A stretch of 64,000 nt of DNA. Source: Amphiscolops sp. MND2022 (taxonomy: Eukaryota). Position numbers and translations under genes: made by a program. Below are positions 19,185-63,489 of the stretch, piece by piece; position 1 is the stretch's first letter; every line of letters starts with the position of its first letter. The notes beneath the pieces are model-generated. The model was not told the DNA's origin, made no database searches, and was given only the letters and a program-made list of their open reading frames with translations. Location: contig OZ076409.1 of the NCBI GenBank assembly GCA_964187785.1, positions 61,134,001 through 61,198,000 on the forward strand, given 5' to 3'.

Positions 19185-19201
19185 ATAAATTAGAACAAAA
19201 T

Positions 19202-19684: not shown

Positions 19685-19687
19685 TAA

Positions 19688-25755: not shown

Positions 25756-25825
25756 TTATAATAAAAAATTGTTGCGAAAGCTATCGCGAAAGCTCCGCGA
25801 AAGCTCTGTAACACTACGTGGAACA

Positions 25826-26710: not shown

Positions 26711-26733
26711 TTATAACAATTTTTTATAAACAA

Positions 26734-29713: not shown

Positions 29714-30279
29714 CTTTGAGAATCCGCACTTGGTCGGACATTTGGCCGTTTTTTGCCTAGCACTTGGTCGAACCCGCACTTCGTCGGTCATAATTGGTCG
29801 AACACGCTATTCTGAATAGTGGAAAATGCTTCAAATGGCCTCAGGATTATTTTAAGACTTTGTCCTACCAAGTGACAAAATGTTAGATTTTATACATTTT
29901 CATAGCGCCGACCAGCGGCGAAAGAGTGTCACGAATCCGGCGTTTTTGATTGGTTGAACGAATTCCTGTGTAAGTTCGACCAAGTGAGCGAAAAGTGATG
30001 CTGCTCTCTGATTGGTCAATTCCGAGGTCAATTCTATGTCCGACATTGTCGCGGTGAGCGAGTGTGTCATCAGTGCTTCTTTCGACAAAGGAACAATGTA
30101 TTAACTCACGAAGCGAATACCGTTGGAAAGCATTCCAAATAGTTCAAAATGACGTCACTAGATAAATTGAACGTCCGACGCGTATCAGATATCACTGTGA
30201 ACCATCCACGAGTATTAATGAAGAATTTTCACACAATGTTCTACCTTTTGTAGTAAAAGTTTTTTAAGTAATTTTCACG

Positions 30280-31040
30280 CATTATTTTATCAACGAACCC
30301 CCCCCACACGCAACATGGATAAAACGAAAAAAAAATGGAAATTAGTGAATATGATTAACTTGAAGTCTTGATATTTCAAATAGTTTTTTTGGAATAAATT
30401 CAACCAATTTCAAGAAAATTTTAGAATGGAAAAATTGTATATGCATTGGCGAATTTTTATGCAGTTATAAGGTAATTTATTCAACACAACAACCACCGCC
30501 CCCCCCCGCGAGGCCAAAAAAAATAAAATGAAACGAAAAAAAATTACCTAACACAATAAAATTAAACTCATGAAACTCTCAAAAATTCATTTTATTTACT
30601 TTTTGGAATATGTCCAATCAATTTTACAAAGGCTTGAGAATGGAGGAAATATGTATGCTTTAGCAGTTTACTGCATTCTTGAAGTATTATATTTACACGA
30701 ACCCCCCCATGCCAAAAAAGAAAATGAAACGAAAAAAATACCTAACACAATAAACTGGATGTCTAACTAATTTTATTCAGTTTATTCTTTTTGGAATAAG
30801 TCCAATCAATTTTAGAAAGGCTTGAGAATGGAGGAAATATGTATGCTTTAGCAGTTTAATACATTCATAAAGTATTATTCTTACACCAAGCCCCCCCAAG
30901 CCAAAAAGTAAAATGAAACGAAAAAGAAATTACCTAAAACAATAAACTGAAAGTCTAACTAATTTTATTCAGTTTATTTTTTTGGAATTAGTCCAATCAT
31001 TTTTTCAGGGGCTTGAGAATGGAAAAAGTATGTGGATCCC
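30280..31040. repeat. About 190-200-bp degenerate tandem repeat, about 4 copies
   Basis: Recurring poly-C..AAAATGAAACGAAAAA..TTTTGGAAT..GAGAATGGA blocks. Confidence 0.75.
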
Positions 31041-31454
31041 CCCGCACAAATAATATGAATATAATTTTTGAGTTTTGCATCATATATATCAGCCGGACGC
31101 TGTTTATTAGCAGTATTCTCAGCACCGGGCGTTGCTCTTTTGTTTGGTTCATCTTTGGAAGTTTCCATTTGTCCATTAATTGATTTTTGTTTAAATTAAT
31201 TGAAATGTTTGATCCCAAATAAAATTCCGGAAGCTCTGGTAGTTAGCATATTTTCGTAGTAGACTTTGTAAATTAGATTTTTAGACCCTCCAGAGGCCAC
31301 GTTCTTCAGAGGCCAGAGGCGTGGGTCTTGTTATGGGCGACACTATGTGATCCCCTAACTGAGAGCCTCTCTAAAAATACATGATAATGGGTGTCAGTGT
31401 TTCAAGGTTGTGATTTTTTATCACAATTTTCACTTTAGCCCGACATTTTTTTAT

Positions 31455-31910
31455 TTAGTTTATTTATTAGTAGTGTTCTCAGCACCGGGCGTTGCTATTT
31501 CATTTAGTTTATTCGATAGCAGTGTTCTAAGCACCGGGCGTTGCTATTTCATTTAGATTATTTAATAGCAGTGTTCGAAGCACCGGGCGTTGCTATTTCA
31601 TTTAGTTTATTTAATAGCAGTGTTCTAAGCACCGGGCGTTGCTATTTCATTTAGTTTATTTAATAGCAGTGTTCTAAGCACCGGGCGTTGCTATTTCGTT
31701 TAGATTTTTTAATAGCAGTGTTCTAAGCACCGGGCGTTGCTATTTCATTTAGTTTATTTAAAAGCAGTGTTCTAAGCACCGGGCGTTGCTATTTCATTTA
31801 GTTTATTTAAAAGCAGTGTTCTAAGCACCGGGCATTGCTATTTCATTTAGTTTATTTAATAGCAGTGTTCTAAGCACCGGGCATTGCTATTTCATTTAGT
31901 TCATTTATTA
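31455..31910. repeat. 49-bp satellite, 9 copies, with CACCGGGCGTTGC core
   Basis: Core at 31482, 31531, 31580 ... 31874. Confidence 0.92.
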
Positions 31911-34186
31911 GCATTTAACAGAAAAGATCCGAAAGTTTTAGTGTTCTAAAGCAATCACAATGCAAAAGAGATTCACTGAAAGAAGTATGAGAATTACAGA
32001 TAAATTTTCGTGAGTTCGATTGTTTCCGGGGTATTTGGATTTATTTTTTATGTTATATGAAACTAATTTCATTTTTATGTTAAATGGGAATAATTTTGTT
32101 TTTATGTTATTTGCTCTTTATTTGCTCTTATTAAAAAGCATAAAACTTCAGGCAATAAAGAGCAAACTTTAAAATCAAATGAATGTTCTGTTGGTGCAGT
32201 GGTTTACACGACTGCTTGAAAAATTGTAGGTGTGTAGTGGTACCCAAGAGTGTCAAGTAAATTATTGAAAATAATTGCAATAAATATATTCAAATAATTT
32301 ATTTTTCAGCCTTTCCAATTACAATAGTTTATTGTTTCAAATTTTACATCAAACACGTCAAACTCAGCTGAACGAATTTTCAGTACTGCGAGATACTTCC
32401 ATAATGACTATCTATGTGACTTTGAACAAAAATTCGAGCATCCGGGATGTAAGTAAATACAGTGAATGAAGTTTTGTGAAAATAATTCGTTTTCTCAAGC
32501 ACTCCAGCACAATAAAGCGACAATAGTTTAAATCATTTATTTTCTTGAAAAATAAATATAAATAGTTTAATTTCATGCAAATTGTATTGAAATACAATAT
32601 TTTACAACCTAGGTGGTACCGATCTGTTTTGAGCCTTTTGCATCTTTCCGTCCTTATGCTGTCTTACTTGTTCATCCTTTTGTTTATCCTCTTCAAAAAG
32701 AGCGTACTGCGATTTCTCTGCAATCTGATTGGCTGAAAGCATGCGGACCGGAACGAAAGCACGGGAAACTTCAGAGAAAAATGAACTTTTTAATTCACAA
32801 CTCAATTTTGCGTGAGGACTTCGTTCCGGTCCATCCATTTTTCTGAAATTTGATTGGCTCAGACCGGTTTTGCTCCATTTTAACTTAACACTTAACACCT
32901 GACTTTTAACATTTAACGGGAAGAGACCTCATTGAAAATTGCATTTCAATAGGAGGATGGTTATTTTCATAACTTGGGAGGACGGAGGTTCAAAATGACC
33001 AACGATAATGAGTTTTACCTCTCAATGAGGGTATAGAATATGAAAGTGAAATTCGACTGCACTTCAAACAATTTTAAGCTCTTGTCAAACCTGACAACGA
33101 GCAGGTACGTGAAGCTGGCATACCAAGAATTATTTCAAAATGCTGTTGGCTCCCGCGTTGTCATATATTCGTTGGTTCGCAGTAAATATGGTATATGAAC
33201 TGCAACACTACTGAATGCTTCAAGGTCTTGTTGGAGTAGTCGGTTGCGCGAAAGATTGATCTCACACCAGCTGCATAGTTAAATTGTGGTTCGAATCACG
33301 GTAGGAGCCACCTTCATGGTTCATGGAATAGATTTCACTGTGATTGTTGATGTTTCAATCGCATCCACGGTGGAAATAATGCAGTAGTGTTGAGAGCAAT
33401 GCCCTTCTCCACTTCCTCGCGCAGTATGATTACTCCAACCAGGCTTTTTTGAGAGTATTTGTTCGTATACTGCGCTACAGTTTTAGCCAAATACATACAA
33501 TCAGGGGTGTTCAATATTTTATCCGAATATTACTATTGCTTTATAATTATTTTTATTCTCAGCGAAAAACGGATATCAACAAAAATTTAAAGTAGCCATC
33601 CATAATCAGGCCAAAACGCGGCGACAGGGCTTTTTTAATGGACTCTTAGACCTTTTGACTCAGTAGCTTAAGGTACTTGACAAAGGTATTTCTAGAAATT
33701 AGCTCAATTTTGTTTGTTTTTCGAATTTATTTCGCTGACGATTCGTTGAATTAAACGCTCTTAGTTTTAGTTATCTCAAAAATAAGTATTTTTATTCATT
33801 TAAGTGTTAATTAAGACATTTTTTTAAAATGTTGAAAATCTAAATATTCAAATCACTAATTACAATGTTTCTAATATCCATGTTTCAAAACTTTTTTAAA
33901 AGTCATCCTTGTTTTGAACAATTAATACTTGGACAGTTTGTATACAAGGATACCAGTTAGATACGAGCATTGGTAGCACATACACACACAACGAGAAAGT
34001 TTGGATCTTTTGTTGATCCCCCCATTTAATTCCCCCGTTTTTATTACTCGATATTACTCTACTTATTTTATAACTCTAGCTGCAACTGAAACTTATCGCT
34101 GTTACAGTAATAAAATATTTTTTATAAATGAAAATAAAATATAAATGAAACGACTTGAATTGAAAAAATACAATGTGTGCGTGCAA

Positions 34187-34567
34187 TTAGAATTCCATGC
34201 CAAAGAATGATTCGTCCGAAGACGAGTCAAAGAGTTTTTCCGAAGAAATCTTCTTGATGCTGGACATAAAGCTCAGCAGTTCTTCCAGTAGTGGATCCTT
34301 GTTGTCCAGAGCATGGTAGCCCAGCACTTCGTTCAAGTCCTTGAAACTTTGTGACTGTGGGTGAAGGTGTATGTTGAATTTCGTTGGGGTCTTTTTCACG
34401 GGTAGCGGATGAGAGCGGTTAGATTGGATTCCATAGAAACAAACTCTGATGACACTTTCTCTGAAGGTCCAATATATTTTTGTGATGGTAACTACCTCAA
34501 TATCGAGGTTTTCAAGCTCTTGTGGAACTACCCACAGTAAGTTCAAATATAGTTTGTGGCAAGGCAT
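34187..34567 (-). CDS. Orphan cargo protein A (126 aa)
   Basis: ATG-started ORF similar to the ORF at 38437-38925 (..P.S.SF..L.EVL.YHAL.N.DP.LE). Confidence 0.65.
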   Translation of the reverse strand: MPCHKLYLNLLWVVPQELENLDIEVVTITKIYWTFRESVIRVCFYGIQSNRSHPLPVKKTPTKFNIHLHPQSQSFKDLNEVLGYHALDNKDPLLEELLSFMSSIKKISSEKLFDSSSDESFFGMEF

Positions 34568-36034
34568 CAGTAGATTTGGTAGGTTAGACTAAACAGACTG
34601 CGTTCAAAGAGACTGAGAAACAACTGGAATTCTACAGTACCCTTCCAAAAGCGTGCTAGCACAATCGTCTCAACCTTAAACCTTACTCACGAGTAATGAG
34701 TCGGTGTTCAGTTGTGATATAGTTCAAAGTAAAATACTTTGGTGAAATAACCGGCTATAGATAATCAAGTAATTAGGAACAGCAAAGTCGAAACGATTGT
34801 TGGTTACTTAATTAAGTATTTTAAAGGCTGCCTAATTATTAAAATTGTAGTAACAAGCGTGACGTTTATTCGTGTTGCCTCGCTATAAAGTATTCAGCAA
34901 AAGAAAGTCCCTTACACTAAAGGAATCCTTTGATACTCCAGTAACCAATTGGATTCCACTTCTAATTAACTCACTTCAGACTCACCTACTAACCAGTCAG
35001 CGCCAATTCACAATCAAAATCAGTTGAAACAACCATCTTTCTCCACTGAACCAGTATTACTGAACCAGTTTCATTCTTCACTGAACTGTATTCAACAATG
35101 CTGAAAGCGACAGGGACAATAATCCTACAAAATGGAAACTTCGCCGTCATTGAGATCAAGTCACAAACCCCCAAGAAAGTTGGATTCTGCTATTACAATA
35201 GTGTGGTTTACCCTGACGGAAAGATAAGGTAATTATTGTTCTAAATCGTTTAGAGTTTCTATGTTAGAATCTGGTTTTTGTATTACGAAAGAATCTATAT
35301 CATGATGTTTTTGGTACACAGGATAACCCTCAGATCTTGGGGCATATGATTGACTAAAAAATTTTCAAAAATACTATCTCAACTTTGTGAAAATCAAGAA
35401 AAAATGCAAATTTGATTTTGTCAAAATTTACAATCCTAACTTTGTAATTTTTGTCAGAAGACTTTCAAATAAACTTTTTTGTAAACTAGATAAAATTCTA
35501 AGAACTTTTTGTAGCCGGCAAATTTTTGTTCATCCTGTTTAGACACGAAAAGATGCTCGAGAATGTGACGGATTTCATGGAAGAACAAGAGGATCTGTGG
35601 CGGCCCAATAATAATATTCATGTCAAGCCATTCCAAGCACGACTTTGATGACGAGATGATGCTGAGAAACAAATAGTCTCACTACCAAGACGATTGCCGA
35701 CGATGCCGCTGGTTGAATTTATCTGTAAAACAACCAAGAACCCGAACTCGAACGCGTATTTCTGGAATATGTGTTGAAACATTTGTGATCACTTTCAATA
35801 CCTTTTGTTTTCGTTAAATATCAATGAAAAATTTCATTGCTTCTTCGTTTATTTTCGAGTGTCGATTTTAGGAAATAGGAGTACCGAATTCGCATAAGAA
35901 AGTCCCGCCGTTTTGAGAAAATGAGTGCCCGAATTTATTCTTCCTGATTATCACTACAGTAGAGTATTTCACAAAAATACATTGAGGGTTATCATTATAT
36001 TAGTTTTGATTGACGTCTAAGTCAATTACTGTAA

Positions 36035-36465
36035 ATCAAACACTGCGCGAGTCAACGGGCGTTGCTATTTTTATTCGTTCATTCTAAATTATACACTGCG
36101 TGAGCACCGGGCGTTGCTATTTTTAATCGTTCATTCTAAATTATACACTGCGTGAGCACCGGGCGTTGCTATTTTTAATCGTTCATTCTAAATTATACAC
36201 TGCGCGAGCACCGGGCGTTGCTATTTTTAATCGTTCATTCTAAATTATACACTGCGCGAGCACCGGGCGTTGCTAGTTTTATTCGTTCATTCTAAATTAT
36301 ACACTGCGCGAGCACCGGGCGTTGCTATTTTTAATCGTTCATTCTAAATTATACACTGCGCGAGCACCGGGCGTTGCTAGTTTTATTCGTTCATTCCAAT
36401 TCGTTCATTCTAAATCAAACTCTGAGCGATGCACCAGGCGTTGCTATTTTAATACGTTCATTCTA
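36035..36465. repeat. 52-bp satellite, about 8 copies, with CACCGGGCGTTGC core
   Basis: Core at 36104, 36156, 36208, 36260, 36312, 36364 plus degenerate flanking copies. Confidence 0.92.
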
Positions 36466-36862
36466 AAACTAGAAGACGAAACTAGAATAAAGATTGGTAT
36501 TTTTATTTCTTTGAATTATTTTCAAATAAATTATTTATTGCACAACGCTGATTGCACTGGGCGTTGCAATCAAAGTTGTTTAAGTTTTAATTGTTTGAAT
36601 TCAGGCAATTAAAAAGTTTATTGATTTGAATGCATTTAGCTGCAATTAATTGCAACTATTTTTTAAGCAAATCAAATGTGAGAAACTGACAAATTTCAAG
36701 TATTTAGGTATAAAATAAAAAACTTGTCGCCCAATAACCTTGAAAAGCGACTTTTTCGTAAGTGAACCATTCTTTCTGGAATATTGATGACGTTAAGAAA
36801 ATTATAAACTCCTAGTATTTTCTTGCAGGATTTAATTGCAATTTTTGTTCGTATCGTTCATT

Positions 36863-37312
36863 GGACCATGTCATCTGTTTCCCCCCCCAACTGCGGCGGG
36901 GGGGGGGATAAGTCACAAGGTTCAAATACCACTATGTCGACATCGTTTGCGTTAGAATATTAATCCAATAAAACAATTGATGTCGACATAATCCTATCCA
37001 TTACATTGACTGTCAGTTAAAAGTTGCTCATTAGATATCATCACGGAGAAAATTTGCGTTGAAATAGGGGCCTTTTTATACTATTTCATCTTGTTCCAAG
37101 CGTGAATTTTTGCCATTTTGGACAATCATATCAAAAAATTAGGGTTTTTTTTTACCTGAAGTGTCCAACAGTTGTAGAGACAATCCGCTAAGTATTTACA
37201 TTCGTATAATATTCTCTAAGTAGTGAAATATTTTTATTCAAGAACAAAATGTGCTTTCGTGCTGGGGGGATTCCTAACAAGGTGTACCTGGGGGGGATAG
37301 ATGACATGGTCC
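36863..37312. mobile_element. 450-bp MITE, Merlin-like
   Basis: TIR GGACCATGTCATCT / AGATGACATGGTCC; exact 8-bp TSD CGTTCATT (36855-36862; 37313-37320); a lone end of the same family at 40752. Confidence 0.85.
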
Positions 37313-37324
37313 CGTTCATTTTTT

Positions 37325-37510
37325 AACAAGTTGTGCGATTAACACCTGGCGTTGCTAATTTACTTCCTTTTGAACAAGCTGTGCGATTAAAACCAGGCGT
37401 TGTTATTTTGCTTCGTTCTGAATAAGCTGTGCGATCAAACACCAGGCGTTGCCTTTTCACTTTGTTCTGGATAAGCTGTGCGATCAAACACCAGGCGTTG
37501 CTTTTTTACG
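37325..37510. repeat. About 49-bp repeat, 4 copies, with CACCAGGCGTTG core variant
   Basis: AAGCTGTGCGATCAAACACCAGGCGTTG units. Confidence 0.8.
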
Positions 37511-38436
37511 TCTTTCGTTTAACACCAGTGCTTTAAACAGAGCAAATAGGAATAAGACTAAAATAGAACCGTCCAATATCAAGGCGCTATGGCCGAGAGG
37601 TAAAATAGAATACTTTACTGCTGTAGAATGTCGGTTCGAATCTACTTAACACCGGGCGTTGCATTGCTTTTTTTTCAAATTGGATGCGTGAAACTTAGAG
37701 ATGTAATCTATCGAATGCTTGTAAAAATCCGAATCATGTCGTTTTCCCCCGATACACATTGTTTACAGTTTACATGACTAAAAAAGACAAAAAATCATAT
37801 CTTGCTTGCTAATGCCACCCCTTCCCCAGCCTACAAGATCCGAAACAACTACAAACTTTAATGTCCATCTAATTAAAATTAAAAAGTTTCTTTTGGCATA
37901 AACGGTCACAAAATGCTGAGACAGTTTTACCGGAAATATATTCCTTTCGTTACTAGTGTATGTGGATCAGACTTGTAATACAAAGACTTCGTACACCATC
38001 CGTGATTTTAGACCACCTCAAAAAATTTAAATAACCAATTCAACCTCAAACCGTCACAAGAGTGCAGAGGTATCGGCACTATCACATCAATTCAGTTTGA
38101 TGCTTTTCTTTAGTCGCCCAACCAGCAACAAATTCAACTACCGATTACCTAATTACCAAATAATTCAGGCTGAACAATTGAACAGACTAGCCTTATGTAT
38201 CATTGAGTAACGCGGTGTTGTGCTTTCATCGACTACATTCGATTAACATGAAGCAACTTAATTCTCTAATTGATAATATTCTACTATTGAACAAAGCTGT
38301 TATTTATGTCTTTCATTCTCGAAGGGAGGAAAACGCAATTATTTGTTATTTGCCAGGGTTTCCTATCGAATAATACATCCTTCATCAGGCTTTTGTTTTT
38401 CGGTACATTTTCTCTTTTCACTTATATATCTCGTAA

Positions 38437-38925
38437 TTGGTTTCTCCACTGGCTCATTCTTTCGTTCAGAGCTGTTTCAAATCAGTCAGTTCAGTTTCGT
38501 TTTCGACTCTCTCTCTCTCTTTCTCCCTGTGTGTGTGTGCCTATCTCAACCACGCTCTTTTTCTCTGTCAAGTATTCACTCTTTCCATCCAAATGTTTTG
38601 GTACCAAAAAGTGTATTTGCACCTCGAATGGACTCTGCCCAAAGAGATGCAGATCAACGGATTAGTTGACGTAATCATTACAAGATTCCGTTGGACCTAC
38701 GCAGACCATTCGGTGAAAATTTGCTACCGTTCCAAGTACTCGGGTCTAGTGTCACCCTCCCAGCCAAAATCCCGAAAATGCAAAGTGCGAATTGATCCAG
38801 AGTCACACAGTTTTTCAAGACTCTATGAAGTTCTTTGCTACCATGCCTTGGAAAACACTGACCCTGCGCTGGAAGACGCCGTGACCTACATGCAGCTGAT
38901 TTACCCACTATCAAGAGCAGCTTAA
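38437..38925 (+). CDS. Orphan cargo protein B (paralogue of A; true start uncertain, probably near 38592)
   Basis: IITRFRWTY..VKICY..IDPESHSFSRLYEVLCYHALENTDPALED aligns by eye with protein A. Confidence 0.6.
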   Translation: MVSPLAHSFVQSCFKSVSSVSFSTLSLSFSLCVCAYLNHALFLCQVFTLSIQMFWYQKVYLHLEWTLPKEMQINGLVDVIITRFRWTYADHSVKICYRSKYSGLVSPSQPKSRKCKVRIDPESHSFSRLYEVLCYHALENTDPALEDAVTYMQLIYPLSRAA

Positions 38926-41900
38926 AAACTTTCAATTTTCAAAAACAGTCTTATTTCTGAATTTGTTTTCTCGCTTCAACTATTTGGTTTCTCATTCTGT
39001 TGGTTGAATTGAATTTATAGAACACATACTTGGTTTTGGCACGAGATAAGTTGAGTGTTAATATAGACTACAAGGGTTATTGTGAATAGGTTACTAGAAC
39101 CGTAAGAAACTCAAGCAAGTTATCAACCAGTCAACTACTGCTGTTTGTAGCTACAAACATAGAAATTGACTGGCAGTAATAAACTAGAATTCTCAGTTAT
39201 ATAACGAAATTTATTCTCTTATTTATCTTGACCACCTGAATTTTCAGGAATTTTCGTTTGCTATATAGCATCTGTCTTTTCTAGTTATCTACAACGATTT
39301 TTAAAATTACAAAGCAAGTCAGTTGATCGAGCGAAATGTAAACTCAGTTTTCGTGAATCCGCACTTGGTAGGACATGAGGCCGTTTTTCAATAGCACAAG
39401 ACTTGCACTTAATACATGCGGTCGTAATTTTACTCGCACAAGGTCGGACCCGCACTTGGTAGGACATGAGACCTGTTTTTACTAGCACAAGGTCGAACTA
39501 ACAAAATGGCAAATGAAAAACCAAATTAGTTTTTGAAAAATAAAAATGAAAAGAGCTTCATCAAACATGAAATTAAAATTGTTTGGGAAAGTTGTCAAAA
39601 GCATTCAAAATCCAAAAGACTAACTGAAAATGTGTTAAAATTACTGACAAAAACGTGAGTTTAATTGTTTAACCGGGTATTCGGCTTTTCGTAATATATG
39701 AAAATAATTTCGCTATGTTGAATGGAACTAATTCCGTTTTTGTAATTTGCTCTTATATAGTATTCGCTACGTGAGTTTGGCGTTATTTGATTAACTTAAA
39801 ATTGCTGCTCTTTCAACCGAGTTAGTGTAGTAGTTAATCACGCTGTCAAGCTCATCATTTGTTAGCGGCAGCTCGTTACAGTATACGCAATTATATGTGT
39901 CTGAAGGTGAACCGGTAATTGCATTTGCGTGTTGTACGATGCTTGACACTATCTAATTCGGTTTTTTAAAGCCCCGAGAAAATCCTTACAGAGAATGTTT
40001 TCGGCATTCTTATTCCCAATGTTATTTGGAAATTCACCAATGTTTTCATTTTGGTTGTTTGACTCGGCTTAAAATAGCAACGCTCGGTGGTTCAGAATTA
40101 TAAGGTGGTTGGGAATTATAAAATGAAATCAAATACTCCCCAACTGGAACAACGTTTGAAACAATCAACTAGTTCCTTTGAATTAAATTCATCAAATTAG
40201 TTTATTGCTTGGAATACTGTAAGTCGGACTTAAACTTTCAAAAACCAAAACGTTATGCGCATTTGGAAAATCAGGCACATTCACAAATTTATTAATTATT
40301 TAATAATTATAATCAAACCCCCCCCCAACTGGAACAACAATGAAAATTTAAAACCTCGATTTTACCGAACGTTGAACTTTATTAGTTAATTCAGTTCGTT
40401 TTTTTGAAGTACAGTTAATATCAAATTATTGTTCGGTATACGTGAGAAGAATATAGAATTCGGTCTCTATATCTTGTTTTTGTATTGAAAAGGATTGCAG
40501 TTCTGGAGAATATTTTAAATGAAAAATAAATTGTTTTGAACAAGTAAAAGGAAAATGAACTATTGATCAAATTGATTTTTTAAAATACATGTACCAATCA
40601 AATACCCGCCCCCCCACCCCCTCAATAAAAATATCTTTGATTTACATTATTCATAAAATTTAATTTAGGATTCATTTATTCAGTTTACTTTTTGACAACT
40701 GTTCTTATAGAAACCAAAAGGCATAAAATCCAACCAGTTATTTCTTAAATCGGACCATGTCATCTATTTCCAAGGTACACCTTGTTGGGAAATTCTCCCT
40801 CCCCCCCAAACACTAAAGCTGTTTGATCTCTGTTCCTTGGATATAATCGAAAAAAAAAGAAAAAAATCACGAGCAGCGCAGTTCGGTAACTACTTTCTGA
40901 TTACATTCTTTATTCAACTCGATGTTCGGGTTTTGAAACCAAGTTTTGTTTGAAATGAAAGGAGGCTGAGTTTGTATTCCGAGCTGCCGCTCTTTTATTG
41001 GGAGTCAACTTTCTTGGTTTTGTCGACGAAAAAAGGAGTGCGGTGGAAATTCTACTAGTTGAACGATGCAGCGTCGTGCAAGCAATGTTTGTTTATGATT
41101 CTAACAAAGCGAGCTGCGGAGTTCAAAGCGGTGACTCATGTGACTCATCGCTTCTTCCAGCGCAGTCGCCATTCAATAGCCACTCTCTTTATCATTCAGT
41201 TGCGTTCGCTCTCTCAATCAAAATTTGAATACCTATCGTCTACTCGCCTATTCAAATCACAATATTTCCACCGATATCAGTGATGATCATTTTTCTTTTG
41301 GTTTCAATGTTTCAGTTTTCTCATTTGTTTCGAAAAGTGAAGTAAAGTTTTGAATTTTCTTTTCGACGATATAATGGTTGCACTCAAGGACGTACAAAAT
41401 TGTATTTAAAACTTTGTTTTCAAATTCAGAATTGAAAACTAAAAAAATGATCATCACTCATTCTTGGAACAAGATATGCCTTTACGCTGCACTCACTGCG
41501 CGAAGGAATTCCAAGCCAATCAGAAGTGGTTGTTCAGTCGCCATCAATCAAGATGCCTGGGTTAGTAAACAAAGATTTTGTACCAAATAACATAAGAGCA
41601 AATAACATAAAAGCGAATTTCTTTCCATTAAACGTAAAAATGAAATTAGTTTCAAAAAAAATCCAAATACCCGGTTAAACAATCGAACTCACTAAATTCT
41701 CATACTTTTTCAGTGAATGTCTTTTGCATTGTGAATGCTTTTGAACACTAAAACTTTCGGATCTTTTCTGTTAATTCCCCCACAGAGAAAATTATGAAAC
41801 ACCACCCCCCCCCCGTAACAGAGATGAGTTTCAGTTGCTGTTAGAGTTAAAAAAAGGTAGAGTAATATAGAGTAATAAAAACTGGGGGGAATTAAAACGG

Positions 41901-42594
41901 TAGGGGGGATTAACAAAAGATCCAAATTTTCTCGTAAACAATTTTATTTTCATGTTATTTGAAACTAATTCAATTTTTATGTTATTTGCTCTTGTGTTAT
42001 CTGGGAATTCACCGTAAACAAAAATTATTGAACAAACCATCCCCCTCACCGCCACCACCAAAAACAGTCAAAAACAGCTTGTGAAAAAAAATTGTACCTG
42101 GATTTAAATAAAATTGAAGGTTCTTGGTTTGCGTCCAAGCCTCTGTTGAAAATTGGAATGCTTGATCATTCATTTGCAGGGCTGTCCAAAAATTATTTCA
42201 TCAATCATCAATTTATCGATAAAAAATCAATCAAAATTTATCGATCGTAAAAATCAATCATCAATTTATTGATAAACTCATGAGATTGTGTTTTCCAAAT
42301 CAGTTCTCAGGTTTTCACACGATTCTGTTTTTAAGGCCAAAGAACACGAAAAGCTCAAATCATTTTCCGCTGCACTTGCCAACTATGTGGGTTAATTTGC
42401 GCAAGCACGACCAAATTGCAGCAGCATGTTGCTAAAAAGACTTGTCAGAAGCGACAAAAAGAAGCTGTGGAACAAGGAGTTACACCCAGTGAGTTTCCTT
42501 CACCGCCTCCAAGTAAGTTGTTTGCTTTTTCAATCTTTATTTTGTTAAATATTTTTTATTTTAATCTTGTTTTACTAGGCTCAGGTATTTTTCA

Positions 42595-43260: not shown

Positions 43261-43415
43261 GACTTATGTTGTTTGCTATTTGGGAATTAACCTTTTTTAA
43301 AAGGTCTTCAATTACAGAAGCTTTCGTAGAACCTATGTATCGTTCTTGAAATAAGAGTAATCTCATTTCTTGTCTTCAGTTTCCAATTGTAGTTTATTTT
43401 CCTTTCCGTGACGCA

Positions 43416-51100: not shown

Positions 51101-52729
51101 GAGTTCATATTTCATTGGCTTTATTGATGTTATATTTTGGTTGAACTGCTCTGTGTGACAAAACCCTACCTTTCTTGCTCTTCAGAAAACCATGTCTACT
51201 TGTAGTGCTGCGCGAAAAACTGAATCGTGGAAAGACTTCCTCTATTCTGATCCGGAGGGTTTCATTGTCCAGACCGTCAAATTCGCCAATGGAACGACTG
51301 GAAGAGGGCTTTTCGTGAAAAAGCAATTTGAAGCGCAAGAGTTTCTCCTGAGTTTTGGGGGGCCGAGGAGAGCAACTCAAGTCGCCAACTTTGACTACGT
51401 GATGGAAGTTCAGGAGGGAAAAGACACAGTGTTCATTGACACTTCCGATGAGACGAACTCTGGCTTGGCGAGGTTTATCAACGACAAGGACAAATCAGTT
51501 GCCGCCAACTGTCGAATGAAAAAGGTTCATGACGACGAGGGCAGACCACATTGCATCTTCCTGGCAACTCGTGTTATTCTTCCAGGTCAGTTTAATTTTT
51601 CAAATTGTGGAACAATCTTCTGTAATGTTTCCCAGAATTCTCAAGTAATTGAAACCCAGATTTAGTTGCTACCAAAAAAACAGTCAAAATGACAGTCAGA
51701 AATGTTTTGAGAAATCAGTGACAGTGTTCGAATGTAAAAGACTTAAACTTAGCACCTTAAACGTTCATATTGGAAACTAATTTCATTTTGACAGTTTGAG
51801 ATTCAAATACAAATTTTGTTCAAACTATGTCCTTCAAACGCAAATTTTCTTCGCCTTAAAATTTAAAAGAATAACTTTCAACTGACAGGTAGCGGCCCCT
51901 TGAGGAGGATTGAACACATGGTCCCTTACTTCCATACTTTTGACACATGACCACGCTCTAGTAACTTTTCAATTCCCACAAAGTATGTCCCACTAATTGA
52001 TTCCGAATAGTTTATCGATTGAAAAAAGTGCTAAAAATTAAGATAGAGTATAGTTATCCGCCTGTCAGGTGTTGGGTGGTGAATGAACCAAGTTGAGAAC
52101 TTGCCATACAAGCTGTTGATTTGAGTTTGATCAGGAGGGGGACAACCACTTATTTACTTGGCGAATAGAAACAAACAAGATTGCGGTTAAAGTCCCATCA
52201 ATGCTTAGTAAATTAGTTTCAGGTCCCACCGAGTGCATTTTCGAAAACGTCCTATTTATTTTTTAAACAAAAATAAGCGAAGCGTCAATAAACCCTGCCA
52301 TCCCCATGGGGTGTTGGGTGGTGAATGAACCAAGTTGAGAGCTTTGCATACAAGCTGGCAATTAGGAGAGAGCAATCAGTAAATTACTTGGTGATTGAAA
52401 ACAAACACGACTGCGTTAAAAAGTCCCATCGATGCTTAGTAAAGTACAGGGTAAGGCCACACCAAGTGCAATTTGAAAAACGTTCTATTTATATTTCAAA
52501 CATATTGTTCTTGCATATAAAATCGCGTTTTCTGTTCGTTTTTGGTACTGTCGCGGAGCCCAAGTTAACTTCTAATTAGGCCCTTTTGAACGTTTTTTGG
52601 TTTTTTCTTTGGAAAATAGGATTATCATGGGTCAACATTGAGCATTAGAGCGGATGTTTTGCAGCAAAGAGCCATATATAACGTTGAAAAATACCTTTCG
52701 TGTAACTACAGGGAATGAAAAATAATGTT

Positions 52730-53155
52730 TAAGTTCGACCAAGTGGTAATGAAGCTCAAACACCGGGCGTTGCTATTTTAAAACACAAACTAGTAGTGTT
52801 TATGTTCGACCAAGTCCCCATAAAATTCAAACACCGGGCGTTGCTATTTTAACCAGGTAGTGATAAGTAGTAGTGTTTATGTTCGACTAAGTCGTTATAG
52901 AATTCAAACAACGGGCGTTGCTATTTTAACCAGGTAGTAAAAAGTAGTAGTGTTTATGTTCGACTAAGTCGTTATAGAATTCAAACACCGGGCGTTGCTA
53001 TTTTAACCAGGTAGTAAAAAGTAGTAGTGTTTATGTTCGACTAAGTCGTTATAGAATTCAAGCACCGGGCGTTGCTATTTTAACCCGATAGTGAAAAATA
53101 GTGTTCATGTTCGACCAAGTCGTGAAAAAATTCACGAACACCGGGCGTTGCTTGG
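52730..53155. repeat. About 77-bp satellite, 6 copies, combining GTTCGACCAAGT and CACCGGGCGTTGC
   Basis: Cores near 52760, 52831, 52908, 52985, 53062, 53139. Confidence 0.9.
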
Positions 53156-55754
53156 AATAGAGTCCACGAGCTGTATAAGTTTTTTCTGTCCTTTCCACTG
53201 GCACATGAAAAATCATTTATATTATTATAAATGGACATCACTGCTTTCCAGATGCCAGATTGTTTCATTATACGGAATGTATATAAACATCTCAGTTGGG
53301 ATAACTCACTAACACAGGGCGTTGATATTCCAATCACTTTTGGCAAAAGTTCCAGGGATGAGTAAGTACATAATTTGATAGGCTCAAATCAAGTTCCCTA
53401 TTTGAGAGGTGTTCAAGTTTCTCGATTCCAGGTGACGTCTTTAAACCAGGATGGGGCTTAGCATAAATCCCAAATCTTATCCATAATTTCTAAATTGCAT
53501 GACATTGAGCAAAATTGTTTTCAAACGGTGAATTCCCAAATAGCATAAGAGCAAATAAAAACACGAGAAAGTTTTAGTGTTCAACATTATAGAAAATTCA
53601 AAGGATTCACTGAAAAAAGTATTAAAAATTACAGATAAAATTACGTGAGTTCAAATGTTCAACCAAGTATTCAGTTTGATTTTTATTTTATAAGAAATTA
53701 ATTTCAATTTAATGTTATTTGAAACTAATTTTGTTTTTGTTATTTGCTCTTGTTATTTGGTACGTAATCTTTTTAAACAATCCCTCGAAATGGACTTTTT
53801 CTGGTAACCGCCAGAATTTTGGCCGTTTCCCTAAACGTTGAAATTTAGTAAGCTTTTCATTGCGCCAAAAACGTTTATTAAACGCTTCTGATTGGTTGAA
53901 AATTGAATTAGGGAAAAAACAAAGTGATTGAGTTTGTGTGCTAAACACCAATGAACTATTTATGATAATGTAATCAGCTATGTTCTTATGCACCTAGTAT
54001 GCACTTAAGTGCAGCAAGGCAGCGAAGCGGAGAGACAATACATTACTTGGCAAGCAGCCCGTTTTGACAAAAACCGACATGAAGTGGCGCGAAGGGCTGC
54101 CGCGGAATGACGGTCGACTCCAGCAAAAAATTGAAAATATTTGCTAAATTCAAATTTTTGGCGCAATGCAGAAAAATTGAATTAGTGTAACGCAATCGTT
54201 ATTGGCATTGGACCATCGTATCCATCTATTTGCATATACTGTAACGAGCTGTCCCCAAAAGATGAGCTCGACAATCGCGCGATAGCGGGATTGTCCACAA
54301 TACTAACAACACTAACATAAGATAGAACCTTTGAAGTTAAAACAACCAATTACTTTACCAAAAATATACCTTTGTGCGAACGCGTTTCAAAATACCGCAG
54401 CTTTTTTGCCTAAAATTACAAAGTTCAACAACAAATAAGTTAAGAGAGTGCCAGAAATACGAAACATCAAGGGAAGTTTTAGAACTTTTGGTATCTCTGA
54501 AAATGTTTCATTGGAATTTCTGCAACAAGAGTTCCAAAATTAGAACAATGGTAACTTCGAAAAAAGTTTATCAAGTTAGCATTTTTTCCAACCATCACAT
54601 TGTTGAAAAAATATCCGTGAAAATTGTTTCGTTAACCATTTGCCCCCAAGTCTGAGGATGCCAGTACCATTAGATTGAACAAAAAATTGGTTTCGAAAAA
54701 TTGACATTTTTTTAATTACAAGATATACATTGGTGGGTCTCAGCGACAACAGTAGCAACGCGTGGTGCTTGAACATCATGATCAATCAAGTGCAAGTCCG
54801 ACCATGTGCTTGTAAAATCAGTCATGTCCTACCAAGTGCGAGTCGACCTTGTGACTGTAAAAACACGACGACAAATTTTACTAACTGCCAGTCCGAACAT
54901 CTGCTAGTAAGAAACAGCATCATACTGAGTCCGTTTTACATGAATCGAAATACATTGTCCAAAAATAGAATAAGTTTTGATATAATTCAGAAATATTTTT
55001 GACTCATTTGAAAATTTTCATAGTTTCAATTTTGAAAGAAAAATTTTGATAGATTTCGAAGCGCCAAAAAATGAAACTGGAGAAAACAACAATATAATAT
55101 TGTCACCAGCGGGTAGCAAAAAACTTTTTACGTGGGCACAGGAAAATTGATATCTAGTTTTAGAAAATGGAATAAGGGGAAGCTTAAAAGGAACACAAGT
55201 GTTTTTCTTCGCAGATAAAGAAATGAGTTTTACTTGAAAAATTCACGTGCAACCTTGTTTAAGGAGAAGAGCTGCGATATGATTATGGCTTCCCAAATGC
55301 CGAGTAGCGAAAAAACACCGCGGTTCCCGAAAGTGAGACACCAGTTAATTTGGAAAACCCAAATTCTACAATAGAACTCGTGGTTGCAACGGCACAAATG
55401 CTTACACTTACCGAAAATGAAATGAGGTTAACTGCAGCCGGACAAGCGCCATGCGAAGAATACGTTACAAACAAATCAGCTGTTACAAAGGAAGAGTTGT
55501 CGAAGCCGAAGACCAGAAGTAGAGTTGTTTTAAAACACCAGGTCCAGAAAATAGAAACGTCAAAACCAGAATCGAAAGCCAACATTACACAGAATATTGA
55601 TTCCGAATCAAAAACCGAAGATGAGAAGTCGGAACAGACAGCCGGTGTAGTAAAAGGTTTCTCGAAATGCGTGGTGGCACTCAGAGCAACTGCCTCAGGA
55701 AAGGATGATTCAAAACAACCAACTACAATTGGAGTAGCCGAGGCAGCTGTCGTA

Positions 55755-57035
55755 AAAAAACTTGAAGCCATGCCAGCTGTCGCAAAGAAAGTTGCTCCTA
55801 TGTCACCAACTAAAAGTGGAGAAGCCAAGCCAGCTGTCGGAGAGAAAGTTGCTCCTAAGTCACCAACTAAAAGTGCAGAAGCCAAGCCAGCTGTCGGAAA
55901 GAAAGTTGCTCCGAAGTCACCAGCTAAAAGGGGAGAAGCCAAGCAAGCTGCCGGAGAGAAACTTACTTCAAAACCACCTGCTAAAAGTGGAGAAGCCAAG
56001 CCAGCTGTCGGAGAGAAACTTGCTTCAAAACCACCAGCTAAAAGTGGAGAAGACATAACAGCTGTCGGAGAGATAGTTGTTTCGGAACCATCAGCTAAAA
56101 GTGGAGAAGCCAAGCCAGCTGCCGGGGAGAAACTTACTTCAAAACCACCTGCTAAAAGTGGAGAAGCCAAGCCAGCTGTCGGAGAGAAACTTACTTCAAA
56201 ACCACCTGCTAAAAGTGGAGAAGCCAAGCCAGCTGTCGGAGAGAAACTTGCTTCAAAACCACCAGCTAAAAGTGGAGAAGACATAACAGCTGTCGGAGAG
56301 ATAGTTGTTTCGGAACCATCAGCTAAACCTGGAGAAGCCAAGCCAGCTGCCGTAGAGAAACTTACTTCAAATCCTCAAGCTAAAAGTGGAGAAGCCAAGC
56401 CAGCTGTCGGAGAGAAAGGTGCTCAGAAACCACCTGCTAAAACTGGAGGAACCAAGCCAGCTGTCGGAGAGAAACTTGCTCAGAAACCACCAGCTAAAAG
56501 TGGAGAAACCAGGCCAGCTGTCGGCGAGATAGTTGTTCCGAAACTACCAGCTAAAACTGGAGAAGCCAAGCCAGCTGCCGGAGAGAAAGTTGCTCAGAAA
56601 CCACCCGCTAAAAGTGGAGAAGCCAGGCCAGCTGTCGGCGAGATAGTTGTTCCGGAACCACCAGCCAAACCTGGAGAAGCCAAGCCAGTTGTCGGAGAGA
56701 AACTTGCTCAGAAACCACCAGCTAAAAGTGGAGAAGCCAAGCCAGCTGTCGGAGAGAAAGTTGCTCAGAAACCAACAGCTAAAAGTGGAGAAGCCAAGCC
56801 AGCTGTTGGCAAGATAGTTGTTCCGGAACCACCAGCCAAACCTGGAGAAGCCAAGCCAGCTGCCGGAGAGAAAGTTGCTCAGAAACCACCAGCTAAAACT
56901 GGAGAAGCCAAGCCAGTTGTCGGAGAGAAACTTGCTCAGAAAGGAGCAGCTAAAAGTGGAGAAGCCAAGCCAGCTGTCGGCGAGATAGTTGTTCCGAAAC
57001 CACCAGCTAAAAGTGGAGAAGCCAAGCCAGATGTT
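55755..57035 (+). repeat. 57-bp coding minisatellite (19-aa KSGEAKPAVGEKLAQKPPA), about 22 copies
   Basis: Exact 57-nt period within exon 2 of the SET-YR gene. Confidence 0.92.
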
Positions 57036-59575
57036 GCTGATGAACATGCTTCGGAACTGGCATCTGTCATTGACGCGAATGAGCCGTCCGTCGCAGCGTT
57101 GTCTTCTAAAAGTGGACCAGTGAGATCATCAACCATTTGCGGAGCATCAAGACCAGCTGAACCGCTTCAACAACCAACAGCAAGTGGAGATAAAAAAGGC
57201 TGTCAAAAAGCCGACCCTGACATCAACGAAACAGCCGCAAGCCAAGAAGCCGAAGAACATAGACTCAGCTATCGAGGAATCTGTTCAAAGGTTGACGACA
57301 AACAAATACCAGAAAAAGGAAGAAAGTTCTTCAACTCCGGATACTTCTCTACCTCACAAAGTAAACCTAGTTTTCTTTTGGTTCACTTTCCTTGATAAAA
57401 ACCACAAAAGTTTTTCAGTAGTCGTTTTTCGTCTCGCATAAAAGTTCATCACATTTGGTCGAACATACGTCGCATGTTCGACCTAGCTCTCCAAAATTCA
57501 GAATGCCGGAGCCCCTTGGTTTCTTTCGTGAGACGTCTACTGGTCAAAAAACAATTGTAGAAAAAAGATGTTTTGGAATAAAGCGAAAATTAATTGAAGG
57601 CGGAGTTTCTAAGGTTTTGCTAATGAAAATTGCTGTTTTTCTGTTGAAGTTTTACCGAAAACATTTCAATTGGTTGATAGTGATCTTCAACTTAGTGTGT
57701 TGTTTTGCAGTTGACACCCAGGAAGGGAACAACCAGAGCTGTAAAACTGCTCGCCAAGGGCCGTCAATACCTACAGCCGAAACCGGAAGCTGAAGAAAGC
57801 GAAGAATCCGTCTCCGAACAATGCTCAAGCGACGAAGAATCGCAGCCCCCATGTTCCAGTGGAACAACTGAAGATTCTAGTAAAGATTCGTCCACCTCGT
57901 CGAGCGATCGATTCACTCCCGGAAGTGATGATGACACGGACGATGAGGATGTGAGCAGCGAATACCCATCGGAAGATGAGCCATTGGAACGAACAAGATC
58001 AAAAACGAAGAAATGCGGTCCTCTGGTTGGAATAACCAAAGAAGTTGTTTTGGATGCAGAAGGTATCAGTCAGATTAGTGAAAGTTCTTACAAGTCAGCT
58101 ACAACTTCAACGGATACCCAAGAAATGGACGATCAGGAAATGGAACTTGTAATGGAGAAGTACGTCCAAAAAACAGGACAATGCCAATTCAATGCTAAAT
58201 TTCTTCGGAAGATCAAAATTCAAGTCGCCCTGAATAAACACAGAAAAACAAAATGTTGTCCTTACTGTCCCTTCACTGAACCAGAAAATGCCACTATGGT
58301 GCAAAAACTGACACGTCATGTGGATAAATTTCATCGCAAAGAACTCCGAGTTTTAAACCTTCAAAGGATTAACAAGGAAATTGAGGATCTTGAAGAAGGC
58401 AGGGAAACTGTTCAAACTGAGACCGAACTTAAAAAACTGAGGAGAGAGAAGGACAATCTCACTCACTTGATTGTCTATGAAGGTCTCTATAAATACAACA
58501 TCGCTGTTTTCAAGAAGTGCAGCGAGACCCAAAACTTCGAGAGCAAATTGATTGTTGCCAGGGATCCAACTGTAGCTGAAAATCCATCTGCTTATGACTT
58601 TGCCCCTTGTCCAAGTTGTCTCGGTTTCTTCCAGAAAAAAACAATGTATCGACATAAAACAGATTGTCCAGCAAGTGGAAAGATAGCTTTGAGCAATACA
58701 GGAAAAAATATCAAGGCTGCTACATTTGCATTGATGCTCGAAGTGAAAGCTACCAAAGACACCCCATTTGAACAATATGTTTTCACACGAATGAGACATG
58801 ATGAATATGGGAATTTTGCAAGGCGTGATCCTCTGATACGATACCTTGGCCAGTGGTACTTCGATAAGAGAAAAGCTGACGAGGGTTACCTTCAAATCAA
58901 CGACAGAATGAGAACAATGGCCAAGCTTGTACACAAACTCAATTGCTCATACTTGATTGAAGTCATTAATCCCGAAATGTGGCCAAGAGTGAAAGAAGCT
59001 GTTATGACATTCGAAAAGTCCTACAGGATTAAAATGGGATCAATTCTGAAAACAGCTGCTCAGTTCTTACGCAACCAGGCTTGGATGTGGAAAAAGAAGT
59101 CAATATCGGAAACAGCAAGAGAGTTCTTGAAAATTCTAGATAGTGAGTGGGCAGCAATTTCGGCACCAGCAAAATATGAGTTAGTTTTTTCTTTTTTAAC
59201 ACTTCATGTCACCACGAAAAACGTCTCATACTGACTTTCAAATTCAACAAAAACAAAGAAAAATGATTTTGCACTTCAGAAAAATGCAGATGTACGTCGT
59301 TTGACAACTTTTTAATTTTTGTAGTATCTTTCATTTAATTCCGTTCTCGCTACTATGCCTGAGCGGATGTCGCGCCCTTAAGCGTCAAATTGACAATGTT
59401 GAGTCTTCCATTGCGGCAACAGTGCAGGAGGGAAGCTGTCGTGAATTATGACAATCCCACGTGGGTGCATATCCGGATAGCATCAACTTTTTTTCAATGT
59501 TTTCAGCTTTAATTCCGTATTTCCAAAATGAGTTTTTTTTCATATTGGCCTTGTATGTTTTGATTGTTTTAACAG

Positions 59576-60350
59576 GATGCTGAAGAAACAGAACGAGTCG
59601 ACACACCTTGTCATTCCAACTTCGGATATGATGCGCTTCGGAGAAAAGATTGGGGCAAAAATTTCGGGTTTGCTGGCCAAAACGACTCACAACTACGCCG
59701 AAATGAAACAAATCGTGATTGCTGATCTTGTCAGTTTTAATAAGAAGCGAGATCGCGAAGTTTCGGGTGTAACACGAAAAGACATGATTCTCCAAAGGAA
59801 TCTGGCTTTACAGAGGGCACAAACAACGGATTACGAACTTTTTAAGCTCACAGAAGTTGAAATGATGTTCGCAAAGTACTACACGTTGCTGCGACTGCCT
59901 GGGAAAGGTGGAAAATTTGTTCCCGTTTTGATTCCACCGAAAACACTAGAAGTGATAGACATCATGAATAATGACGATAAGCTGAAAAGTGACAACTACT
60001 TCTTCCAAACAGAGGGAGGCGAACAATTCTACAGAAGCATAGATGTTTTGAGGAAATACGCTGAAGAGTTTAAGCTGCAAGACAAAAAAGTGTTCCGATC
60101 TACAAAGCTCCGCAAGTATCTTGCCACTGCAGCCCAGTTCTTGGATTTACCACAAAACCAAAGAGTTTGGGTGGCCGACTTCCTGGGACACGACCTGAAT
60201 GTTCACGACAAGTACTACAGGATGCACACTGATGCTGTAAACCTGGCAAAAATGACCAAACTATTATACATTGCGGACAAAGGCAAGGTCAAAGACGCCT
60301 ATCTAGAGAACCTTGACACACACCAGCCGACTTTGAATCTTGACGATTCG
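59576..60350 (+). CDS. Tyrosine recombinase catalytic-domain exon
   Basis: R (FNKKRDREV), K (PGKGG), TKLR in place of HxLR, H (FLGHD), Y (HDKYYR); no lesion in this exon. Confidence 0.88.
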
Positions 60351-62186
60351 GTGAGAATTTCTACTAATTTGACTTCAAATACTATTGCGAATAGGTTGAT
60401 AAGTTTGAATTCCAATTTTAATTTTTTTTCAATAATTTTAAAAGCTTCAGTTGAAATAGCAACGCCCGGTGTTTGAGAATACTTTTCACTTCGAATAGAA
60501 TTAACAATTAAAAAAGTGTCGGAGTTCAGTTTTTTGAATTCTTTGTTGAATTAGCAACGCCCGGTGTTTGAGAATACTGATTTCTCTTCGAATTGAATTA
60601 ACAATTGAACAAGTGTCGGAATTTAGTTTCTTGAGTTCTTTGTTGAAATAGTAGCATACGGTGTTTGAGAAGTTTGCTCTTCGAAAAGCTGCAAAGCAAA
60701 ATCACGTCTTCGTGTCATAATTTCCCCAAATTTTGAACTTTCCAGGATGCAGGTGAAGAAGTAGAAACTCCTGCTGATTCAAATCTTCCGAGTTCCTTGA
60801 AGGCGACTCCAAGCCGCAGCACATCACAACGAACCAAAGAGAAAGGGAAGAAGGATGAGTCTGATGAAGATGACGATGACGATGACGACAACAACGACAA
60901 GGAAGAAAAGTCAGACGATGACGCTTCATTCCAAGCAGATGAAGTTTCCCATGGTTCTGAGGAAGAACCCGAACAAAGAAGGCCCAAGAAAAAGAAGAGA
61001 ACAACTGCTGGAAGGCCAAAAGGTGCCACCAGACGACAATGGCCGAAAGATCAAGAAAAGGCGTTGAGAAAGGAATTTCGAAAAGAAATGATGGAAGGGC
61101 GTCTGCCCGGTCAAGATGTCTGTTTGGAAGCAATGAAGAGGTATCCTCATGCACAAAAGTGGCAAGATTTCAAGGACAAAGTGAGGAATATGCAGGTCAG
61201 CGATGCCAGAAAATGAAAACTGTTGGAAATTTCAAAGACTTTCAGTTCAAAACTTTTTTATTTTTAGGAAATGGTATTTATATCGACAATTTTTATATTT
61301 TGTGAACGCTGAATTGACTTAACTGTTTTGAATTTTGAATTTTCTGACAGCTTGTTCAATAAATTTGAAATGTTTATCGGACTTTGTTGATAAAGTTATT
61401 GCTTCTGCTTATTCAGTTTTGTGTTTTCTGAATTCACTTTTGCGTCCAAATATTTCCTTATTTTGTTTAAGTTAGAAATAGTTTTATTTTGTTCCTAATG
61501 TGTTATCAGAGGTGTGGCAGCGATAGCGGTAGCGAAAATCCTGCATAAACTAGCGATATCGATAGTTAGCGACAATATAAAGCGTTAGCGGACACTTTTA
61601 TTCGCTTAAAGAATTGAAAATTAACGAATGCAATATTTTATTGCGAATAACTTGACTCACTCATCCTCACTTGACTCACTCATCTTATTGGCTTTGGCTT
61701 GGCTTTTAGTTTCTTTCGAACGGTTATTCAGTGTAAAGAACGCAAGACGAACTAGATTTTGCCCAAAAATTTTCAAATTTTGTTACTTTTAGAGTACAAT
61801 TCTGAAATTTTTATATCTATGTTGAAAATCAAGATTTTTTAATCAGCAATGGGGGAAGGTTTTAATAAAAGAATGCGTGCAAATTGCCTAACTTTCACAG
61901 CAACAGGTAGAACAAAAAACTATAATTCGTCATAGACTGATTAGAAAAGGAGCAAAAAAGCATGAAACCAGCTATTGCACAACACATTCAAGTTTGTGTT
62001 AATGTCCTACCAAGGCATGTGGCTTTTTCTATCTTTTGTAGTCTCAGACAGTCTAAGATAGAATGTGCATGTTCGACCGCTTTTATGTGAAGGTTCGACT
62101 GTTTTGTTTGACCGGTCAATTGTGAGTGTAAATGTTCGACCTTATGCGGATTGTGCTGGCAGACCGACCAAGTGCGGATTCTCACA

Positions 62187-62981: not shown

Positions 62982-62994
62982 TTATTAGGTATAA

Positions 62995-63471: not shown

Positions 63472-63489
63472 TTATTATTATTAAAAGTA

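Follow-up and report, generated by a model that had tools for sequence, protein, structure and literature searches.

The 64,000-bp stretch of the Amphiscolops sp. MND2022 genome analysed here (contig OZ076409.1, positions 61,134,001 to 61,198,000; hereafter the window) contains a block at 29713-62194 that is a single mobile unit, landed in a gene of a Polinton, because its ends are multicopy, its copies are collinear and the corresponding empty sites are contiguous. It is probably a giant, CryptonV-like DNA transposon whose tyrosine recombinase (YR) belongs to a family widespread in animals, an assignment made from described behaviour, and it probably works like an animal counterpart of the Starships.

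The original prediction for this DNA had described perfect 21-bp terminal inverted repeats (TIRs) enclosing a block that had arrived as one insertion and split a Polinton open reading frame (ORF). The repeats are indeed present (29717-29737 and 62164-62184), far beyond the ~0.0015 such pairs expected by chance in 64 kb. In the 1.07-Gb genome the TIR has at least 220 matches with two mismatches or fewer and its reversed control has none, while patterns specific to each end gave at least 102 left-end and at least 107 right-end matches. These genome counts are lower bounds, and pairing was analysed among the 100 left ends and 100 right ends listed. A right end in the same orientation lies within 100 kb of 63 of the 100 listed left ends, with a median span of 33,985 bp, and 51 of the 63 spans fall between 29 and 39 kb. 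All five full copies that were fetched align collinearly with the block in the window, and each has different flanks; pairwise identity among the full copies compared is 95.1-97.7%. Among three other Polinton copies fetched, two (L056 and L057) gave an empty site with both flanks contiguous and one 189-amino-acid (aa) ORF spanning it, and the third (L058) aligns to both flanks and lacks the short repeat at the site. Two of the checks that had been proposed, a search for paired copies with different flanks and a comparison with uninterrupted Polintons, thus bear out a single insertion, and neither the same block in other Polintons nor ends paired with unrelated interiors was seen when we looked for them. 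Measured against the empty site, the insertion spans 32,482 bp and the true element ends lie 4 bp beyond the TIRs, so the predicted repeat positions hold and the predicted element limits (29717 to 62184) do not.

The family comprises at least two subfamilies, here called A and B, and has a sibling. Subfamily B elements are 37-38 kb long, and over 3 kb, intron sequence included, another 18 B copies show 99-100% identity; subfamily B is younger than subfamily A, and the family has been recently active. One locus (C1:47,152,343-47,186,062; L003, L004) combines a subfamily B left end with a subfamily A right end and YR and is a recombinant. A complete sibling element of 50,383 bp lies at C1:269,927-320,309 (L198-L203); it has imperfect TIRs, and its two core genes are those of the window family, with 68-74% identity at the DNA level and a YR that is 66-70% identical. 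The YR occupies the same position in all three families (32.5, 37-38 and 50 kb). The sibling family, at ~50 kb or more, was also seen at C5:34.09 Mb (L059, L060). It is probably more abundant than the window family, because its left-end motif has at least 829 matches in the genome and its right-end motif at least 250, counts that include motifs found inside elements. We had considered the sibling to be a 19-kb element, which was rejected when its left TIR-like motif proved internal (6/6 pairs continue into constant sequence).

Genes of the element

The YR, SET domain, JmjC domain and zinc fingers named in the original prediction are all present inside the block, and the YR is, as predicted, the only mobility gene found there; ORF scans against Pfam gave no reverse transcriptase and no DDE transposase inside the element. 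What did not survive is the description of SET, JmjC and zinc fingers as cargo. In the predicted gene model SET is exon 1 of the transposase, because it is spliced in frame to the YR and is also carried by 14 of the 30 relatives of at least 900 aa, with the same domain order in unnamed fish proteins. The SET ORF halts just short of its final GEELxYDY motif, which lies beyond a 3.7-kb phase-1 GT-AG intron and runs into 19-aa repeats (55764-57034); the order of the product is a SETD8-like SET, the 19-aa repeats, Cys/His motifs, the YR and a Myb/SANT-like tail. The introns of both core genes are all GT-AG with fitting phases, and they are kept in all copies, which fits movement as DNA. A subfamily B copy has a spliced SET-YR frame of 1716 aa with no stops; in the window copy two lesions break the gene, a stop at 55305-55307 and a frameshift towards the end of exon 2.

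The structure model of the YR ORF (59532-60476; pLDDT 79.7) matches XerH with Z 11.2 (rmsd 4.3, 187 aligned residues) and XerH, XerA, topoisomerase IB and Cre with Z 9.6-11.3, and its top 25 fold matches are all YRs, topoisomerases IB or YR-fold proteins. When the window YR was aligned with 19 relatives, the catalytic Lys, Arg, His and Tyr were invariant and the first Arg nearly so; a Thr stands family-wide at what we take to be the usual first-His position of the motif. For SET the nearest solved structure is SETD8 (E 4e-5), and its RxxND variant recurs in 10 of the 14 SET-bearing relatives and in both SET-bearing metagenome loci.

With 2,175 representative clusters at E<=0.001 the YR family is a large one, and its named members, from fish, beetles and a bug, are all uncharacterised. 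SET lies beside the YR in two of 80 metagenome loci, and JmjC is fused to the YR in none of 150 relatives and beside it in none of the 80 loci, whose median length is 4.5 kb (in the element JmjC lies 10 kb from the YR). Some of the metagenome relatives are small: L064 (163-5932) occupies ~5.8 kb between two GT tracts, L065 has a 149-bp inverted repeat around the YR with its arms ~4 kb apart, and others end at microsatellites (L099 at GT, L080 and L098 at GTAA).

The second core gene joins zinc fingers to JmjC. Two small exons, which begin at 41476 and 42336 and encode zinc-finger-like units, join in phase with the exons for C2H2 and JmjC, giving a predicted product with three zinc-finger-like units and a KDM2/KDM7-type JmjC; the window copy is frameshifted near 48750, and the sibling copy has an open frame of 661 aa. 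The nearest solved structures of the JmjC are KDM2A (E 1.5e-10) and, for the last exon of the sibling, PHF8 (E 7e-12). It keeps H-x-D, Thr, Lys and the distal His, which we take to be the metal- and cofactor-binding residues. Homologues came only from ENA contigs and as one JGI protein at 80%, and the gene may be specific to this lineage, as far as short contigs allow the comparison. On these exon models the zinc fingers and JmjC are one four-exon gene, and the gene counts as core machinery rather than cargo because its order is conserved and it is under purifying selection in the sibling family. Between the window family and the sibling, dN is 0.16-0.52 and dS 1.6 to saturated over all core exons, which indicates purifying selection on both genes.

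Several observations tell against an element driven by this SET-YR transposase. All exon and splice models are predictions; the window YR has no Pfam match, its profile found nothing relevant among solved structures by sequence, and its Foldseek E-values are weak (best 4.8e-3), though to the same families. A single subfamily B copy was tested for an intact SET-YR, and the gene is broken in all six subfamily A copies examined, which evolve near neutrality (pN/pS 0.9-1.5 in seven of eight exons, 0.2 in one); such broken, near-neutral copies are as expected of decay after insertion. In a FastTree phylogeny of 72 rows, restricted to relatives of at least 600 aa and built with no outgroup and the family root not set, the 14 relatives that carry SET group together in a single clade, of whose members the 12 looked up come from teleost fish, and the long branch of the window YR lies outside that clade. 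Independent capture of SET is a possible alternative to one fusion because of this separation. We nevertheless consider a single ancient SET-YR fusion likely.

The small orphan genes are the part of the content that does look like the predicted cargo. Accessory modules appear to have moved between families, because orphan gene 1 is 92% identical to its sibling copy and the core genes 68-74%, and this gene is likely to be exchanged cargo. The 52 homologues of the orphan genes are all from one source type and none is named; the best fold match is PH-like (Z 5.2), and a BTB identity, which had been a high-scoring lead, was not supported. A 320-bp segment at 33136-33457, 86% identical to the 50-kb sibling and with no ORF or Rfam match, is possibly a second exchanged module.

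Ends, targets and movement

We compared the junctions of 34 left/right pairs: 12 that came out of the first search, and another 14 of subfamily A and eight of subfamily B chosen among the 63. The left 4-mer outside the TIR is TCTT in 23 pairs, CGTT in nine (all eight subfamily B copies and one hybrid) and a one-base variant in two. Beyond the 4-mers stand TG-rich hexamers: in 16 pairs both read TGTGTG, in 14 just one does, and in four neither does. In the 18 informative (imperfect) pairs the two hexamers are never identical, so they are not a target-site duplication, which would make them so. The same 4-bp/6-bp/4-bp layout occurs in the 50,383-bp sibling. An earlier reading as a 5-bp TGTGT overlap was dropped for this layout after the subfamily B ends and 22 more pairs had been added. 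Partial copies of the TIR core lie within ~80 bp inward of the left end. Among individual junctions, the first 337 bp of the right end L019 match at just 85%, and the right flank L029 is not TG-like.

This pattern fits YR strand exchange over a 6-bp overlap with mismatch tolerance, although point mutation after insertion could account for some of the 18 unequal pairs. The overlap of the bacterial element Tn916 is likewise 6 bp long. Recombination by its YR is described as needing no homology between coupling sequences and as forming heteroduplexes (PMC5812530), and a YR spacer of 6-8 bp, matched by the spacing here, is given in PMC3212892. We think it very likely that the element is excised by its YR as a circle and integrated into TG repeats. 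The YR would bind both ends and cut 6 bp apart; the excised circle would carry the junction TIR-CACA-hexamer-TCTT-TIR and would recombine into TGTGTG-like sites, with mismatch tolerated as in Tn916, such that one junction retains the target hexamer and the other the carried hexamer. The junction anatomy, the YR active site and the selection were observed directly, and it is from them that we infer the circle and the activity of the enzyme. One sequencing run of low depth (X1; contigs, 85-99% alike) covered 26 of 30 bins, intronic sequence included, with no splice or circle joint, and was not used as evidence.

Each right end would supply a new TG target, and therefore head-to-tail strings and clusters with sibling families arise. 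A sibling-family end adjoins 17 of the 34 insertions, and all four head-to-tail junctions fetched read CACA-(TG)n-TCTT, with spacers of 18-44 bp, longer than the 14 bp that a circle junction should have. At C351:53.6k, 84.2k and 115.1k and at C641:167.8k (L051-L054), as many as four full-length copies stand in a string with only short TG tracts between them.

A perfect 21-bp TIR is a usual feature of DDE elements but not of Cryptons, which would suit ends that belong to a DDE-type transposon moved in trans, with the YR as a passenger. We consider this improbable: there is no target-site duplication in the informative pairs, the 4-bp tails outside the TIR are asymmetric, no DDE gene was found inside the element, and the YR gene is intact in the family, selected and in the same place in three families. 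Still less probable is that the element is an endogenous DNA virus, now reduced, that integrates by a YR in the manner of nimaviruses or Polinton-like viruses. Nimaviruses are described as inserting into microsatellites by YRs and as carrying intron-containing, eukaryote-like genes (PMC10871703), and the YR has weak fold matches to a hytrosavirus YR (E 3e-3) and nudivirus VLF-1 (E 6.5e-3). However, 95 ORF scans against Pfam gave no capsid, polymerase, packaging or other viral gene inside the element, all viral matches falling in the flanking Polinton and just short ORFs being left without an assignment; 19 candidate stretches in viral contigs yielded no confirmed relative; and the element is 76% non-coding, with relatives that are cellular and in some cases ~4-6 kb. 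For the window element the virus reading is largely refuted.

Motif arrays and chromatin

Exons make up ~24% of the element and ~76% is non-coding. A 13-bp motif (Table 1) recurs in the element and forms the core common to tandem arrays whose periods differ. It is absent from the exons, from the flanking 31.5 kb and from the sibling; its last two minus-strand copies lie at 60459 and 60554. On the 104-Mb contig C1, all 83 exact matches of the 16-mer fall in five clusters at element loci.

PHF8-type enzymes can remove H4K20me1, the mark that SETD8 writes, and the SET and JmjC domains could form a writer-eraser pair. Granted the movement proposed above, the reading we tentatively prefer is anti-silencing, in which the zinc-finger-JmjC protein would bind the element's own 13-bp arrays and remove repressive marks, and the fused SETD8-like domain would mark chromatin at the ends or at the target while recombination proceeds. 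The analogy is VANC, which is described as recognising family-specific target motifs in tandem repeats of its transposon (PMC5735166).

Nearly as likely, with the same movement and no anti-silencing, is that SET acts on the transposase or on break repair and that the arrays are accessory (arm-type) YR sites or arose merely as tandem repeats expanded. H4K20 methylation, the mark of SETD8-type enzymes, is not known as an activating one. The arrays could be YR sites rather than zinc-finger sites because the most dispersed motif of the sibling is its own TIR core; 9-mers resembling the TIR core (one mismatch or fewer) are also more frequent inside the window element than outside it (23 vs 6), and JmjC was missing from the relatives and metagenome loci given above, so the family moves without it. 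Against this alternative stand the JmjC itself, which keeps its metal and cofactor residues, evolves under purifying selection between families and is joined to zinc fingers, and the 13-mer, which is unlike the TIR, strand-biased, exon-avoiding and family-specific, as are the VANC targets described in PMC5735166. More doubtful than anti-silencing alone is the full extension of that idea, an animal lineage of Starship-like giant YR transposons with its own sequence-targeted chromatin toolkit, comprising a zinc-finger-JmjC eraser that reads the family motif and a SETD8-like writer fused to the recombinase.

A 200-400-bp repeat is scattered through the element in both orientations (31915-32124, 33991-34105, 39516-39756, 41583-42035, 43818-44091 and 53505-53770); it occurs once in the sibling and nowhere else in the window, and may be a MITE or a regulatory module. 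Rfam gave no match in 120 kb, and PHROG gave none. The host Polinton belongs to a very abundant family (1,192 first-look candidates for a 294-bp probe) with two ATPase-like ORFs. The window copy has several stops and frameshifts; some of its ORFs are presumably DNA polymerase-like by their motifs, with no Pfam polymerase match. Elsewhere in the window, 1-1488 and 4124-8822 hold an LTR-retrotransposon-type integrase ORF (rve and Integrase_p58_C) and minus-strand ORFs with a weak BED zinc finger, 16460-16776 is a 317-bp near-perfect palindrome, and 12300-15100 holds a cluster of related 50-150-bp repeats.

Table 1. Positions in the window of the element, its genes, ends and arrays, and its host Polinton.
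Feature	Position	Strand	Details
Polinton/Maverick, left part	18846..29706	.	Double jelly-roll capsid, rve integrase, ATPases; ends in 3' part of interrupted ORF
Left overlap hexamer	29707..29712	+	CATGTG in window copy; TGTGTG in 21/34 copies
Left end	29713..29737	+	4-bp TCTT (CGTT in subfamily B) and 21-bp TIR
13-bp motif CACCGGGCGTTGC	31123..53151	+ mainly	48 copies with <=1 mismatch, 45 on + and 3 on -
49-bp array	31449..31913		
Orphan gene 1	34190..34567	-	126 aa; 92% DNA identity to copy in 50-kb sibling
52-bp array	36032..36396		
49-bp array	37328..37516		
Orphan gene 2	38593..38922	+	110 aa; 35% identical paralog of orphan gene 1; beta4-alpha2 model
Zinc-finger-JmjC gene	41476..50750	+	Four exons: 41476-41560, 42336-42512, 48675-49856, 50309-50750
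58-bp array	42591..43251		
SET-YR transposase gene	51192..61216	+	Five exons: 51192-51585, 55264-57360, 57712-59179, 59576-60350, 60746-61216
77-bp array	52726..53152		
YR catalytic exon	59576..60350	+	Arg 59748, Lys 59904, Arg 60111, His 60189, Tyr 60216
Right end	62164..62188	+	21-bp TIR and CACA; CACA in 34/34 copies
Right overlap hexamer	62189..62194	+	TGTGTG; 25/34 copies
Polinton, right part	62195..64000	-	Begins with 5' part of interrupted ORF

Relation to known elements

Of the named groups CryptonV fits best, since its members are YR DNA transposons of animals and insert into microsatellites (Kapitonov and Jurka 2012, cited in PMC8869645). The predicted Crypton-like or CryptonV-like behaviour agrees with the TG-microsatellite targets and the lack of target-site duplication; insertion at TG hexamers in the 34 pairs and small relatives that end at GT or GTAA repeats are the points of likeness, drawn from description. 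Classical Cryptons are described as simple one- or two-gene elements with 4-6-bp direct repeats and a proposed circular intermediate (PMC3212892, PMC13465315), and as having no TIRs (PMC3212892). Like them (CryptonA/F/I/S), the window element has a YR as sole transposase and a short overlap of the 4-6-bp direct-repeat kind that reflects microhomology and not target-site duplication; unlike them, it has perfect 21-bp TIRs, a further difficulty for a Crypton assignment, and a YR fused to SET and a Myb-like tail. No Pfam match to DUF3504, NDC10_II or GCR1_C was found in 20 and 45 family members, and QRICH1 and Ndc10 match the window YR at Z ~5 and Xer at ~11.

Starships are described as giant fungal YR transposons of 15-511 kb that have short direct repeats and in some cases TIRs, are specific in their targets and vary in accessory content (PMC11162782). 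The elements here resemble them in giant size (32.5, 37-38 and 50 kb) and in accessory content that differs between relatives. They differ in that a Starship opens at its 5' end with a captain YR of the DUF3435 type, whereas here the YR gene comes last with no DUF3435 match, and in that cargo is scant and the element mostly non-coding. The host genome also does not appear fungus-like; its spliceosomal introns, the Polinton and the relatives point to an animal. With the Tn916 family they share YR recombination without homology between coupling sequences (PMC5812530), but that family is bacterial, has Xis and conjugation genes and uses AT-rich targets, in contrast to the TG repeats, spliceosomal introns and chromatin domains found here. 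The Arabidopsis VANDAL/VANC system likewise combines family-specific motifs in tandem repeats with an encoded candidate anti-silencing protein (PMC5735166); VANC acts on DNA methylation in plants, whereas the candidate here is a zinc-finger-JmjC enzyme with putative binding. The literature searched held no giant or SET-fused YR transposon in animals, and no CryptonV at 33-50 kb, with a JmjC gene or with cargo exchange; Repbase Reports, the 2020 Kojima review and subscription papers lay outside the search, and some of these features may be described there.

Fungi are known to have giant YR transposons able to carry cargo. An enzyme that places 30-50 kb in TG repeats without duplication may help large-cargo integration, and the young, apparently intact subfamily opens tests of Crypton excision and integration, for which the circle model has so far only been proposed. 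The element also bears on whether animal transposons can evade silencing by means of histone-modifying enzymes of their own, and on the role of a large unnamed SET-YR protein family. If the toolkit reading were true, elements of 30-50 kb would be kept active with chromatin or repair steered at the cut site, accessory modules would be swapped among sibling families within tandem clusters, and thousands of unnamed SET-YR or YR-only proteins of fish and insects would be the transposases of this lineage.

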